Shown here: positions 10,062-11,414 of the stretch, piece after piece
How the letters are laid out: every line of letters begins with the position of its first letter
Position numbering within the stretch: position 1 is the stretch's first letter
From: Methanocaldococcus jannaschii DSM 2661
GTDB lineage: Archaea > AGJL01 > Methanococci > Methanococcales > Methanocaldococcaceae
Assembly: GCF_000091665.1 (NCBI RefSeq)
Contig: NC_000909.1
Span: 533,581 to 565,580 of the forward strand
Direction of reading: 5' to 3'
DNA length: 32,000 nucleotides
The notes under the pieces: generated by a model
Database searches by the model: none
Told to the model about the DNA's origin: nothing
The model's input: the letters and a program-made list of their open reading frames with translations, nothing else
Made by a program: the position numbers and the translations under genes

Positions 10062-10094
10062 TTATGGTTTTAAATAGAAGAGATGACTCTTACA
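10062..10094 (-). pseudogene. orphan duplicate of the last 10 codons plus stop of the nth-like gene
   Basis: The reverse complement reads TGT AAG AGT CAT CTC TTC TAT TTA AAA CCA TAA, giving [10 protein letters not shown]. This is identical in amino acids to the functional end at 10353-10385. There are 5 nt differences, all synonymous. Confidence 0.8.
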
Positions 10095-10352
10095 GCATAG
10101 GAGGAGACCTCCTATTGCTATGAAACTTTTAGAAAAAGTTAAATGAAAATCAAAGATTTTCATAGCCCGAAGCTAACGCTTCGGTTAAATGAAAACTAAA
10201 AGAGTTTTCATAGCTGGAAAGCGTAGCTTTCCATTTCATTAAAACAGGATGCATTACCTCGCTTCACTCGGCAATGCCTCTTAATTAAGTGGGGCTGAAC
10301 GTAGTGAAGCCCCGCTCTGGGTATCCACACCATAGAGGGGGCTACGCCCCCT
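10095..10352. repeat. array of hairpin modules inserted between the orphan and functional 3' ends of the nth-like gene
   Basis: Successive stem-loops at 10094-10119, 10143-10163, 10167-10184, 10189-10211, 10215-10233, 10250-10276 (imperfect), 10291-10313 and 10330-10358. It shares the AACTTTTAGAAAAAGTTAAA left end and the double-hairpin unit design with 11980-12113. Confidence 0.8.
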
Positions 10353-11414
10353 CTATGGTTTCAAATAAAATAAATGACTCTTACATTTACAATCAGAACA
10401 TCCAAAGTTCTCAACAAAATCAAATTTTTTTATAAATTCATTTGCAACCTCACACTCAACTCTCTCATTTGTAATATAAATCTCTTCAATCTTACCATAT
10501 TTTAATAAATAATCAATATGCCAGTGCATCTTTTTATCATCCTTTAAATGCCTCTCTATCCTATTTTTTAAGTTCATTGAATTTCCAAAGGCAGAGCCAA
10601 TGTAGAAATAATATCCTTTTTTAAAAAATCTCTCTGTTTTTCCAAATTTTATTTTTTTACCTTCTTTTAACCTAATTTTTAAGATGTAAGTTCCTTTTTC
10701 ATTAGGGATTTTGTTTTTTGAGACTTTTCTAAAATTGAATTTTTTTAATATATTTTCAAAGTGCTTAATTTTTTCATAGTAAGGGCATTTCTCTTTAATT
10801 TCTTTAAAACATTTATCACACTTAGATTTTGAAGAACAAATCTCCCTTCCAAAAACCACCAACAAATTATTTATTACTTTCCAATATTTTTTAGGAAGCT
10901 TTTTTCTTAATTCAAACTCTGTCTCTTCAGGAGTCTCAGTATCAACTATTTCCCATCTATTACATATCCTATGGACATGGGTATCTACACAAATCCCATC
11001 TTTGTTGAAAGCTAAGGTTATAACCAAATTAGCTGTTTTCCTTCCAACCCCTGGGAGCTTTAACAACTCTTCCAAAGAATCTGGAACTTTCCCATTATAA
11101 TTTTCTTTTAAAATTTTGGCTAATTTTTTTAAATTTTTTGCCTTATTTTTATAAAATCCTGCTGGGTATATCAAATCTGCTAATTTTTCTTCATCTATGT
11201 TTAATAAATCATCAACATCCTTAATCTCTTTAAATAGTTTTTTAGAAACCTCTTCAGTTACTTCATCCTTTGTTCTTGCACTTATTATAGTTGATATTAA
11301 AACCTTAAAAGGGTCTTTATCTTTGGCTATCTCTGTAACTACTGCATTTTTGTTTAGTTTTTTTAGCAATATTTCAATTAACTCCATAGGAATCCCAAAA
11401 TTAGCATCTTTCAA
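10353..11414 (-). CDS. nth: endonuclease III-like HhH-GPD DNA glycosylase fused to a C-terminal GIY-YIG/DUF123-like domain
   Basis: HhH-GPD core ([20 protein letters not shown]) and the 4Fe-4S loop C-x6-C-x2-C-x7-C ([18 protein letters not shown]). The C-terminal 130 aa or so contain GTYILKI...GYYFYIGSA...RIERH...HWHIDYL, typical of the DUF123 / Uri-like nuclease fold. Confidence 0.85.

Follow-up and report, generated by a model that had tools for sequence, protein, structure and literature searches.

The window (the whole 32,000-nt stretch of Methanocaldococcus jannaschii DSM 2661 DNA that was analysed, to which all coordinates refer) contains two convergent genes, nth and tyrA, whose ends are separated by a second, short copy of the nth 3' end and a block of hairpin-forming DNA. 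The genes and copies are arranged as follows.

8720–10060, plus strand: tyrA, prephenate dehydrogenase family, convergent with nth
10062–10094, minus strand: orphan nth 3' end, stop codon TAA, 1 nt beyond the tyrA stop codon, where the gene end natively lies
10353–10385, minus strand: functional nth 3' end, stop codon TAG, continuous with the gene body
10353–11387, minus strand: nth-like gene, endonuclease III (HhH-GPD) fused to a DUF123 domain, 344 aa, ATG at 11387

Both 33-nt copies encode the same 10-residue peptide on the minus strand, and all 5 base differences between them are synonymous. They lie 291 nt apart from start to start, with 258 nt in between, and the similarity ends sharply on either side of the 33 nt. 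Random placement of five substitutions leaves peptide and stop codon unchanged with P = 3.4e-4; under a mixed model, with the functional copy constrained and the orphan neutral, P = 5e-3. The copy adjoining tyrA is an untranslated relic, and the copy joined to the gene body keeps nth intact.

Composition of the nth insert

The 258 nt between the copies carry only spurious ORFs of 41–48 aa. As single-stranded DNA they fold into eight or nine consecutive hairpins with a free energy of -66.3 kcal/mol, against -26.9 +/- 3.3 kcal/mol for shuffled sequences (z = -11.9). The core is a 28-nt palindromic element, GAAACTTTTAGAAAAAGTTTCATCAAAA, which is split here by two double-hairpin units and accompanied by further modules.

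10095–10118, unstranded: module M0, a 24-nt hairpin, GCATAGGAGG-AGA-CCTCCTATTGC
10122–10140, plus strand: 5' part of the 28-nt palindromic element, GAAACTTTTAGAAAAAGTT, broken off after ...GTT
10141–10186, plus strand: double-hairpin unit 1, the AT-rich hairpin ATGAAAATC/GATTTTCAT followed by the GC-rich hairpin CCGAAGC/GCTTCGG
10187–10233, plus strand: double-hairpin unit 2
10234–10245, plus strand: 3' tail of the split 28-mer, TTTCATTAAAAC (consensus TTTCATCAAAAC)
10246–10285, unstranded: module M1, a hairpin (AGGATGCATT...AATGCCTCTTAAT)
10289–10315, unstranded: module M2, a hairpin (GGGGCT...AGCCCC)
10330–10358, unstranded: module M3, a hairpin, CCATAGAGGGGGC-TAC-GCCCCCTCTATGG

The core of the 28-mer occurs three times in the window, against 0.1 occurrences expected. 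Similar hairpins, M0 (GCATAGGAGG...) and M3 (...CCCCCTCTATGG), form the two edges of the nth insert, and M3 coincides in its last 6 nt with the Pro and stop codons at the end of the functional copy, giving microhomology at the outer junction. Modules of the M0 type also lie ahead of the 28-mer at other Methanocaldococcus loci; the inserts at atpD, tyrA and an SMC gene (below) have no boundary hairpins of the M0/M3 kind. The composite module order of the nth insert recurs in the stretches L082, L087, L098, L114 and L132 at 82–95% identity. A source cluster identical to the nth insert was not found among the matches listed, the best match being 82–95% identical and from other species.

These results agree with the preliminary description on the identical peptides, the five synonymous differences among 33 nt and their coordinates, and on the orphan beginning 1 nt past the tyrA stop codon. 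That description also had the insert open with the motif AACTTTTAGAAAAAGTT, which has to be corrected: the 24-nt hairpin M0 comes first, and the motif starts at 10124. Its hairpin array of repeated units stands in part, since double-hairpin units do occur at both nth and atpD; taken as a whole, the insert is not a single repeated unit but a nested assembly of modules of several types.

Against Rfam at the gathering threshold, the window matched the SRP RNA only, and at E ≤ 10 there was no credible match to the hairpins or the 28-mer within 8600–12200. No recombinase, integrase or transposase lies near the nth locus in the window neighbourhood, and a BLAST comparison of the hairpin array with plasmids gave no match.

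Related insertions in the window and in other Methanococcales

Two further insertions of this kind lie in the window, one at the 3' end of atpD and one, the third instance, at the 5' end of tyrA.

8635–8657, plus strand: orphan tyrA 5' end (ATGGAAAATAAAAACCTAACAAT), behind the native ribosome-binding site
8658–8685, plus strand: 28-nt palindromic element, intact
8686–8719, plus strand: filler separating the element from the functional start of tyrA, containing an AT-rich, TATA-like stretch and, directly ahead of the ATG, GGGGG
11905–11979, minus strand: orphan atpD 3' end (24-residue peptide)
11980–12113, plus strand: atpD insert, with the 28-mer variant GCAAC...GTTGC, which two double-hairpin units at 11999–12091 split, and tail plus filler GCATCAAAAATTATTTTTGTAA
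12114–12188, minus strand: functional atpD 3' end (whole gene 12114–12764)

At atpD, 25 codons are duplicated and 13 of the 13 differences between the copies are synonymous (P < 2.5e-6 for random placement, 4e-6 under the mixed model). The orthologous atpD insert in FS406-22 and M. bathoardescens consists of the unsplit element and tail only (46–48 nt). At tyrA, the filler stretches resemble a promoter and a ribosome-binding site and may act as such; in M. bathoardescens the tyrA orphan has lost its ATG. Orphans of this type give annotators spurious ORFs, for example at 8626–8763 and 11905–12036 of the window.

The stop codons of nth and tyrA are separated by 2 nt in FS406-22, sp. 10A and sp. 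16A, by 12 nt in M. bathoardescens and by 15 nt in M. fervens. The nth site is thus empty in five of seven relatives, none of these five has an orphan copy, and it follows that the insertion split the two genes in the M. jannaschii lineage. Judged by gene order, this comparison shows nth and tyrA to have abutted in the ancestor. No M. jannaschii strain without the nth insert was found among all contigs encoding the exact Nth protein, and metagenomes, scanned with a degenerate pattern for the two nth-end alleles, gave no match.

The atpD insert has a different distribution: it is present in four of the eight genomes compared (the window and seven relatives), absent from the other four, and also found in L093. 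All five genomes with the insert share the GCAAC/GTTGC variant of the 28-mer, and FS406-22, M. bathoardescens and L093 share an E>G change in an insert-proximal atpD codon, which together point to a single origin of this insertion. It is ancient and common to at least five genomes, not peculiar to M. jannaschii.

A scan with the 19-nt core listed at least 120 stretches, the M. jannaschii reference chromosome not being among them. Among the matches listed, the layout of orphan, element and functional copy was seen at about ten further loci in Methanococcales. The duplicated stretches are the following.

Window: nth 33 nt, atpD 75 nt, tyrA 5' end 23 nt
L019: tRNA-Val, 32 nt
L081: tRNA-Pro, 45 nt
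L137: tRNA-Gly, 25 nt
L132: gene 5' end, 34 nt
L125: SMC gene end, 39 nt, 5 of 5 differences synonymous
L133: 41 nt, three copies around two different inserts
L104: CRISPR leader/repeat, 41 nt
L087/L098: overlapping gene junction, about 20 nt

Duplication lengths are 23, 25, 32, 33, 34, 39, 41, 41, 45 and 73–75 bp, and the inserts between the copies measure 35–258 nt. Insert 1 of L133 has no 28-mer, yet shows the same kind of duplication. The three tRNA cases are T-loop insertions whose orphans have broken T-arms, with substitutions near the junction only. Duplications at tRNAs and 5' ends reach 8–21 nt past the gene or take in the ribosome-binding site; at all three protein-gene 3' ends (nth, atpD and SMC) the duplication stops 0–3 nt from the stop codon. 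Where the gene body could be placed (8 of 8 loci), the order is always orphan, 28-mer, tail, functional copy. The same hairpin modules build the CRISPR leader beside a partial repeat in L048, L104 and L114; the CRISPR repeat of these genomes is 30 nt long.

Young duplicates are identical or nearly so (FS406-22 tyrA 23/23, L137 25/25, L133 40/41). At the level of sequence comparison, this shows that resident DNA is duplicated when the insert arrives. Three expectations of the preliminary description were upheld by these comparisons: that atpD is a second instance; that convergent nth and tyrA nearly abutted ancestrally, the gap being 2–15 nt in five of seven relatives; and that the mechanism is recurrent, since atpD, the tyrA 5' end and some eight loci elsewhere in Methanococcales have the layout too.

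Origin of the duplications and of their synonymous differences

On our reading, a non-coding, MITE-like cluster of small hairpin-forming modules was inserted duplicatively in the nth/tyrA region; it is built round the 28-nt palindromic element and belongs to the palindromic repeat population of Methanocaldococcus. To this reading, and to the explanation as a whole with template switching as the duplication step and later allele turnover, we assign a probability of about 0.45.

For the duplication step, template switching is the likeliest route and staggered cleavage of the transposase type its chief rival. During replication or break repair, in a copy-choice (template-switch) event, synthesis would quit the chromosome at or just beyond the gene end, copy a stretch of another repeat cluster and, led by short similarities, rejoin the chromosome tens of bases upstream of the exit point, so that the gene end would be copied twice. 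Insertions with a duplication spanning a gene terminus would survive because the gene stays unbroken. Template switching is favoured over a transposase by the variable duplication length, by an insert whose left end is fixed (at the start of the 28-mer or of M0) and whose right-hand filler varies, by the uniform order of parts at the eight loci, and by the recurrence of the composite module order elsewhere. Junction similarities may also fit, namely CTATGG common to module M3 and the nth end, GTTYR at the three tRNA T-loop junctions, and GAAGAAGTT at atpD, which resembles GAAAAAGTT of the element; all are short and imperfect. Several points tell against template switching. The ending of the duplication 0–3 nt from the stop codon at nth, atpD and SMC is not predicted by the model, and would fit an element with a selected replacement gene end. 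The strict polarity could stem from selection, given that the reverse strand of the element has T5 tracts that are possible transcription terminators. Finally, the 28-mer is conserved to the base across archaeal phyla, which suggests that a dedicated partner recognises it; a purely host-driven process would provide none.

The synonymous differences call for a second component. A neutrally decaying orphan is rejected by the mixed-model probabilities at nth and atpD and by the 5 of 5 synonymous differences at SMC. The pattern is best explained by recombination in which functional alleles overwrite both copies, given that the genes are mosaics of different lineages and that non-synonymous decay adjoins the insert; we infer that selection on the orphan is not required. 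Homologous recombination between lineages, and with insert-free alleles, would overwrite the parts of the copies distant from the insert with sequences that were former functional gene ends, and the parts adjoining the insert, which escape overwriting, would consequently decay. The mosaic structure is seen at nth and atpD, where all relatives differ by about 12% and 8–9%, respectively, and the nearest neighbour shifts along the gene. In sp. 16A, the outer half of the orphan is the functional allele of the insert-free sp. 10A, and the part adjoining the insert carries E>K and F>L. Non-synonymous changes are present in the orphans of FS406-22, M. bathoardescens and sp. 16A, and third codon positions account for 73% of the inter-genome orphan differences vs 87% of those between functional copies. 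Such turnover needs recombination across ~10% divergence within tens of bases of the insert, which is plausible in these organisms.

Among the alternatives for the duplication step, true transposition with a long target-site duplication survives best, although we consider it unlikely. A predicted enzyme would recognise the 28-mer or the hairpin ends and make staggered cuts 23–75 bp apart; gap filling would then double the target, and the copies would evolve thereafter as in the main explanation. This would account for duplicates that always flank the insert directly and in direct orientation, near-identical when young, for the fixed left ends of the inserts, and for a many-copy family with presence/absence polymorphism. 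The exact 28-mer in many phyla and the covariation of its hairpin stem suggest a specific protein partner, and the flank consensus (T)TTNAAA|...CAAAA could be a short target preference. However, known transposases give duplications of fixed length, the right-hand ends and filler vary, and the first insert of L133, with no 28-mer in it, is flanked by the same kind of duplication. No transposase gene was found near any copy, the sole link to a transposon being insertion inside tnpB genes of Micrarchaeia; plasmids gave nothing similar, and only two viral contigs contain the 28-mer.

A tiny integrative cassette, consisting of a hairpin insert with a captured gene end, is an improbable source. It would enter the homologous gene end by a single reciprocal crossover of the Campbell type, leaving one functional and one displaced copy of differing lineage origin. 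Copies with differences that are only or mostly synonymous, the native position of the nth orphan and the duplications ending at the stop codon in 3/3 protein-gene 3' ends would all be expected. So would the reciprocal mosaic seen in the window (vs L014) and in sp. 16A (vs sp. 10A), in which the functional copy looks native in its inner part and the orphan in its outer part, but this is equally expected of ordinary recombination halting at the insert edge. The functional atpD end of the window and the FS406-22 orphan both have the rare TTA-ATT-AAA and GCC, as if the crossover points had differed. The unit would nevertheless be just 74–291 nt long, without an integrase, and would have to recombine through 23–75 bp of diverged homology; no circular or free form is known. 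Moreover, the identical copies of young events argue that resident DNA was duplicated and no foreign allele brought in, and a captured gene end does not explain the tRNA and 5'-end duplications that extend past the gene or include a ribosome-binding site.

That orphans are kept by selection for use, as alternative terminal exons joined by bulge-helix-bulge splicing, as small ORFs or as gene-restoring templates, is very improbable. The peptide is kept at nth, atpD and SMC despite 15–17% nucleotide divergence, the 28-mer forms tRNA introns at the canonical position in DPANN archaea, and the two nth copies share a reading frame (291 nt = 97 codons). Yet the orphan contributes nothing to a functional copy that already ends in a stop codon, and neither the atpD spacing of 209 nt nor the 46-nt insert of FS406-22 is divisible by three. 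Nor does any consistent start codon or frame lead into the orphans, and the broken T-arms, the non-synonymous changes in three genomes and the lost tyrA ATG of M. bathoardescens do not suggest use. Splicing fits no better: read by eye, the would-be nth splice sites are not complementary, and the bulge-helix-bulge motif (two 3-nt bulges, 4-bp helix) is indicated in DPANN tRNA genes only, through ARAGORN intron calls. The 28-mer as a self-contained bulge-helix-bulge intron was likewise rejected, its flanks forming 3.6 pairs against 3.1 in shuffled controls.

Off-target integration by Cas1-Cas2 or a casposase-like enzyme, duplicating a repeat-length stretch of target, is scarcely credible. Copy, insert and copy do mirror repeat, spacer and repeat, most duplications (23–45 bp) are close to the 30-nt CRISPR repeat in length, and the same modules form the CRISPR leader in L048, L104 and L114. 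The lengths, however, are not fixed and reach 75 bp at atpD, the inserts of 35–258 nt are structured repeat DNA and not spacer-sized, the target junctions have no leader-like motif, and lineages and settings with no relation to CRISPR have the 28-mer as well. A chance low-complexity match at nth, for which the 31% G+C of the window and the many short AT-rich two-copy matches of the repeat search might speak, is ruled out for practical purposes by the kept peptide and stop codon (P = 3.4e-4), by an orphan lying exactly where relatives have their gene end, and by the same layout at about ten other loci.

Known repeat systems and the 28-nt element across archaea

The palindromic repeats MJRE1-3 of M. 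jannaschii, described in 2005 by Suyama, Lathe and Bork, are reportedly short and mostly extragenic, with more than 100 copies, some of them in frame in coding regions. Gene-end duplication, orphans, presence in CRISPR leaders and the 28-mer outside Methanocaldococcus are said not to feature in that work. By description rather than consensus sequence, our elements resemble MJRE1-3 in organism group, in being short palindromic repeats and in having in-frame copies in ORFs. The original report (Suyama, Lathe & Bork 2005, FEBS Lett 579:5281) is cited in PMC2229807, where bacterial MITE, REP/BIME and RPE-type repeats are described as small, non-coding, hairpin-forming and multi-copy, and bacterial small palindromic repeats as mosaics between convergent genes, polymorphic between relatives and sometimes in frame in genes. 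The window elements are equally small, non-coding, hairpin-forming, clustered between convergent genes and polymorphic. They differ in that those families have short fixed or no target duplications and narrow hosts, whereas here the duplications vary over 23–75 bp and the 28-mer is identical across phyla. Small non-coding size, multiple copies with a common organisation and presence/absence polymorphism at orthologous sites, as in MITEs, are all found here, but the short target-site duplication of fixed length is not, lengths running from 23 to 73–75 bp. No cognate autonomous element with a transposase was found in the window neighbourhood or in plasmids, and among viral contigs just two carry the 28-mer. 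A REP/BIME system with RAYT, or one derived from IS200/IS605, is not indicated: the junctions have no common tetranucleotide and long duplications are present.

Integration of the prophages phage 21 and e14 into icd of E. coli brings in a replacement gene 3' end. The likeness lies in the duplicated 3' end with its functional gene-joined copy, displaced orphan and largely synonymous differences; those prophages, in contrast, are kilobase elements with an integrase and att core, and the inserts here are 35–258 nt long and geneless, with identical young copies. LINE/SINE retroposition and the templated insertions of microhomology-mediated break-induced replication have been described in eukaryotes. 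They share with the present loci variable flanking duplications of tens of bp, microhomology at junctions and fixed polarity, but the reverse transcriptase and poly(A)-like tail of LINE/SINE elements are absent here, and extension of these mechanisms to these archaea would be by analogy. For bulge-helix-bulge tRNA introns, Fujishima et al. are said to have proposed, in 2010, intron transposition in Thermoproteales. The 28-mer introns in several different DPANN tRNAs are reminiscent of such spread; in contrast, no splicing motif encloses the window element, most copies show no pairing of their flanks, and it is duplication, not splicing, that rescues the T-loop insertions in Methanococcales tRNAs.

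Among the matches listed, the exact 28-mer (GAAACTTTTAGAAAAAGTTTCATCAAAA) was present in many archaeal phyla, including inside tRNA introns of DPANN archaea, where ARAGORN intron calls make it most of the intron, at the canonical position 37/38, in several different tRNAs. Within ORFs it reads KLLEKVSSK, and the pan-archaeal copies inside ORFs are in the open-frame orientation by 12 to 3 among the matches listed; for those outside ORFs, no orientation bias relative to neighbouring genes was seen among these matches. In Micrarchaeia, the 28-mer interrupts tnpB genes as an insertion. A general link to TnpB was dropped, because the association is confined to Micrarchaeia, where the element interrupts the gene. 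PMC13107129 offered nothing in favour of the 28-mer serving as origin hairpin in a rolling-circle replicon of archaea, and the outline and abstract of the circular omega-RNA paper PMC12558985 do not mention the 28-mer. We found no published description of the 28-mer or of the gene-end duplication, and a literature search by sequence gave no paper.

It is conceivable, if rather unlikely, that the 28-nt hairpin is the core of an undescribed archaea-wide mobile element, geneless and spread by template switching or by a conserved hairpin-binding enzyme. On the same speculative reading, it might survive in essential genes either as a spliceable tRNA intron (DPANN) or through a 'self-healing' duplication of the terminus (Methanococcales). 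With similar reserve, the CRISPR leaders of Methanocaldococcus might have been assembled from these same hairpin modules.

Small palindromic repeats are commonly regarded as inert intergenic filler. Here, they insert at the termini of essential genes and of tRNAs, which stay unbroken thanks to the duplication of tens of target bases. Such insertions separate abutting convergent genes and add T-rich hairpin tracts after genes, and at tyrA an apparent promoter and ribosome-binding sequence has been added ahead of the gene. The hairpin repeats also mark breakpoints of inter-strain rearrangements and, given that the distal parts of the copies are overwritten and the proximal parts decay, these loci record recombination between lineages of hyperthermophilic methanogens. 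If a single mobile family does extend from the tRNA introns of DPANN archaea to the CRISPR leaders of Methanocaldococcus, it would bear on how archaeal tRNAs gain introns and on the origin of CRISPR leaders.

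Duplicated nth end and the nth/tyrA junction

The end of the nth-like gene is present twice in the window. In agreement with the preliminary description, the functional copy joined to the gene body (10353–10385) and the untranslated orphan copy (10062–10094) show 5 mismatches in 33 bases, and the same ten-residue peptide is read from the minus strand of both. The similarity drops off sharply at either side, and the probability of keeping peptide and stop codon under five random substitutions is P = 3.4e-4. The ORF belongs to a 90%-identity cluster with M. jannaschii END3 (Q58030); this cluster includes a 353-aa record, the length of the window's TTG-started nth-like ORF. 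An identical TyrA protein and the same gene order were found on M. jannaschii-like contigs, in keeping with M. jannaschii or a strain very close to it as the source of the window.

The orthologous nth/tyrA region was taken from seven relatives and the junctions were compared. The gap between the two genes measures 2 nt in each of FS406-22, sp. 10A and sp. 16A, against 12 nt in M. bathoardescens and 15 nt in M. fervens; the orphan is absent from all of these. These gaps of 2–15 nt uphold the earlier reconstruction, in which nearly abutting convergent genes were later separated by an insertion. In the window, the orphan adjoins the tyrA stop codon, the exact place of the native nth end in the relatives. 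The hairpin array follows the nth stop codon on every contig encoding the exact M. jannaschii Nth protein, and no strain lacking the insert was found among these contigs. Together with the close spacing in relatives, this indicates that the insertion is lineage-specific and fixed in the strains sampled. In sp. 28A (L018 5036–5600), nth is followed by a CRS1_YhbY-domain gene and an Lhr-type helicase, with no tyrA, which places a synteny break exactly at the nth end.

A Methanocaldococcus MAG (L014) carries a different, 81-nt hairpin insert at the junction, likewise without an orphan. This independent insert (L014 5036–5116) occupies precisely the gap from the nth stop codon to the tyrA stop codon, and the left arm of its first hairpin is the gene's own CCATAG, as with module M3 in the window. 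In M. jannaschii-like metagenome contigs (L007–L010, L143–L149), breaks recur at the 28-nt palindromic element (28-mer) upstream of tyrA and also inside the array downstream of nth, which fits modules that are genome-wide repeats or are flanked by strain-variable DNA.

The 258-nt nth insert consists of eight or nine hairpins in a row (z = -11.9, folded as DNA). It is a nested composite rather than a series of repeats of one unit:

10095–10118: hairpin M0
10122–10140: first 19 nt of the 28-mer
10141–10233: two double-hairpin units
10234–10245: tail of the 28-mer
3' of the 28-mer tail: hairpins M1, M2 and M3, in that order

M3 ends in CTATGG, six bases that double as the proline and stop codons at the functional end of nth. 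The same module order occurs at unrelated loci of other Methanocaldococcus genomes with 82–95% identity. Several lines show that the units are later additions inside the 28-mer. The atpD insert in FS406-22 and M. bathoardescens contains only the unsplit element and a short tail (46–48 nt), whereas in the window two units are placed after ...AAAAAGTT of the 28-mer. Conversely, the 28-mer at the tyrA 5' end has no units in the window but two at the same point in M. bathoardescens. Across ten units from different loci, 94% of cells in the first hairpin are paired and 5/9 pairs are altered on both sides, so that this hairpin is maintained by compensatory changes.

Separately, an intergenic stretch at 4001–4180, between an ORF ending at 3950 and one starting at 4190, reaches 41–47% G+C, against 31% for the genome. 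The stretch bears no relation to the hairpin modules, and Rfam gave no match for it at the gathering threshold; a structured RNA is one possibility.

Recurrence of the layout

The window contains three copies of a 17-nt core (0.1 expected), all on the plus strand. At atpD, the second case cited before, the gene end (12114–12188) and its orphan (11905–11979) have 25 codons in common, and 13/13 differences are synonymous (P < 2.5e-6 for random changes); this case is stronger than that of nth. The atpD insertion is old and of single origin, since the rare GCAAC/GTTGC stem variant and the junction are the same in all five carrier genomes and an E>G change in the insert-adjoining codon of the orphan is common to three of them. 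The third 28-mer (8658–8685) has an orphan tyrA start on one side (8635–8657, following the native ribosome-binding site) and the functional start of tyrA on the other. Two mechanical ORFs, 8626–8763 (45 aa, MKFMENKNLTMKLLEKVSSK...) and 11905–12036 (43 aa), arise from an orphan gene end in combination with the palindrome and could get mis-annotated as hypothetical proteins.

Species-representative genomes were scanned with a 19-nt core, and the flanks of the additional Methanococcales loci were compared. Among the matches listed, the orphan–insert–functional layout appeared again at further sites, which bears out the proposed recurrent mechanism. For three tRNA genes (tRNA-Val, tRNA-Pro and tRNA-Gly), the 3' part from the T-loop on plus 8–21 nt downstream is duplicated. 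One gene 5' end is duplicated around the insert together with its ribosome-binding site, as are 12 codons and the stop of an SMC gene in sp. 16A (5/5 differences synonymous). At one gene junction (L087, minus orientation, about 970–1200; L098 4440–4780), a composite cluster lies between two genes that in the past probably shared an ATGA overlap: the left copy GGTGAAGTAAAATGATTAAC holds the functional upstream end GEVK* and an orphan start MINKA*, the right copy GGTGAGATGAAATGATTGAA an orphan end GEMK* and the functional start MIETISG.... At locus L133 (minus orientation, 7656–7920), a 41-nt target (ATAAAATATCCTACAAGTCCCCTCATCCGAAACCAT[A/T]CAAC) stands in three direct copies. The two inserts between them differ: the first type is an M0-type cluster that lacks the 28-mer, the second is the 28-mer itself. 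The rightmost copy continues into G+C-rich sequence, possibly an RNA gene.

The layout is also present at a CRISPR leader/repeat junction. The Methanocaldococcus CRISPR leader is built of the modules seen in the inserts (M0, followed by the 28-mer, which may or may not hold a unit, and by hairpins of the M1, M3 and M2 types) and adjoins a partial CRISPR repeat (...ACCGAAACGGTCTGAATT):

L048, about 6800–7300, minus orientation: CRISPR leader
L104, about 3340–3640: CRISPR leader; 41 nt (leader end and degenerate repeat) duplicated around the cluster
L114, about 3000–3450: CRISPR leader

Two contigs of M. jannaschii-like strains encoding the identical TyrA (L004 3100–3170, L005 1670–1740) are homologous to window 8600–8690 starting exactly at the left end of the 28-mer. 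They have a K+ channel/TrkA gene upstream where the window has a PAP2 gene, and the palindrome is preceded by ATGGGGCTCGGGAGATACAA, a fragment similar to a tRNA 3' end and to the tRNA-Val 3' orphan of locus L019. The 28-mer thus marks a rearrangement breakpoint, which suggests recombination between two copies of the element.

Origin of the duplications and of their synonymous differences

Duplication length varies from 23 to 75 bp across the loci found, and all eight loci with a placeable gene body show the same order: orphan, plus-orientation 28-mer, tail or filler, functional copy. Young duplicates are nearly identical (FS406-22 tyrA 23/23, L137 25/25, L133 40/41), indicating that the insertion event duplicates resident DNA and that a foreign allele is not needed.

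The synonymous-only differences fit allele turnover by recombination. Both nth and atpD are mosaics, with relatives about equally distant and the nearest neighbour shifting along the gene. Third codon positions account for 73% of the differences between orphans of different genomes, so these changes date from a time when the sequences still coded for protein. The sp. 16A orphan is identical in its outer half to the functional allele of sp. 10A, which has no insert, and has the changes E>K and F>L in its insert-adjoining part; the functional copy is the mirror image. A chimera of the window's functional inner and orphan outer parts has 3 differences to the L014 allele, compared with 8 and 6 for the single copies. 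Recombination with other alleles that replaced sequence only as far as the insert edge would produce such mosaics. The same mosaic would follow from one reciprocal crossover with a small circle that bears the insert and one gene-end copy, and we retain this as a rival. Selection on the orphan is an unlikely cause, given that functional copies have stop codons of their own, copy spacings are not consistently in frame, T-arms are broken in tRNA orphans, and several orphans are altered in their peptide or no longer have a start codon. Neutral decay of the orphan is ruled out, with P = 5e-3 at nth and 4e-6 at atpD when the functional copy is allowed its share of changes.

For the duplication step, we infer template switching during replication or repair: synthesis would exit the chromosome, copy another template and re-enter upstream of the exit point, so that the gene end is copied twice. 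The variable duplication length, defined left ends with variable right-hand filler, short junction similarities (CTATGG at nth, GTTYR in tRNA T-loops, GAAGAAGTT vs GAAAAAGTT at atpD) and the lack of an enzyme gene near the inserts or in plasmid or virus matches fit this reading and argue against a classical transposase, as does the same behaviour of inserts without the 28-mer. Template switching accounts less comfortably for duplications that stop 0–3 nt from the stop codon at three protein-gene 3' ends, and for exact conservation of the 28-mer far beyond the Methanococcales loci.

The 28-mer across archaea

The exact 28-mer GAAACTTTTAGAAAAAGTTTCATCAAAA (window 8658–8685) occurs in many archaeal phyla among the matches listed (L019–L138), often with several copies per genome bin; as the scan required an exact 19-mer, copy numbers and taxonomic range are minimum values, skewed toward the master sequence. 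DPANN matches include Micrarchaeota, Aenigmatarchaeota, Pace-, Woese- and Nanoarchaeota and Iainarchaeum/Diapherotrites; others are a thaumarchaeote, Methanobacteriales, Methanosarcinales, Methanovirga and Methanothermococcus. The TCATCAAAA tail is missing from bacterial 19-mer matches, which look fortuitous. The two stem arms covary among variants (GCAAC/GTTGC, GAAGC/GCTTC, GAACC/GGTTC, TAAAC/GTTTA), so that compensatory changes preserve the hairpin.

In DPANN, the 28-mer makes up most of the introns at the canonical 37/38 position of several tRNAs (tRNA-Gly, Ala with two isoacceptors, Asp and others). In Micrarchaeia it is found within the 3'-terminal part of tnpB (IS200/IS605) genes that exist in multiple copies, in frame (...ILKRA-KLLEKVSSK-ATLGQRE...) and directly 3' of the RuvC-III motif (DRDENxxK), where the omega RNA should start.

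L020 6197–6315, L026 2880–2984, L043 1981–2141; also L045, L049, L056, L071, L085, L115: DPANN tRNA introns
L046 7299–7610, minus strand; also L022, L027, L033, L053, L096, L136: tnpB genes
L092 (about 7200–7260), L126, L129, L054; L035, L077, L123: tandem arrays

An Aenigmatarchaeota tRNA-Ala intron has two extra hairpins at the ...AAGTT point, as in M. jannaschii (in L043, after ...AAAAAGTT, the split point of the M. jannaschii arrays). In one Aenigmatarchaeota tRNA (L051), the 28-mer appears to sit in the T-loop. A self-contained splicing motif was rejected. Further copies lie right after tRNA genes, in tandem arrays, or within Lys/Glu-rich ORFs, where they are read in frame; their orientation follows no rule with respect to adjacent genes. 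Head-to-tail arrays have periods of 27–29 nt or 36 nt; longer 60–70 nt tandem units containing the 28-mer have identical 'spacers', which rules out CRISPR arrays. In the L053 tnpB, the sequence past the element diverges from other copies.

No Rfam family and, in the literature searched, no mention of the 28-mer was found. Overall, the earlier observation and its interpretation are confirmed and extended. The element can be placed, in broad terms, among the small non-autonomous palindromic repeats. As far as we could determine, three features are undescribed: the long, variable, terminus-preserving duplications, the signature of recombination in the orphans, and the core element with its pan-archaeal range.
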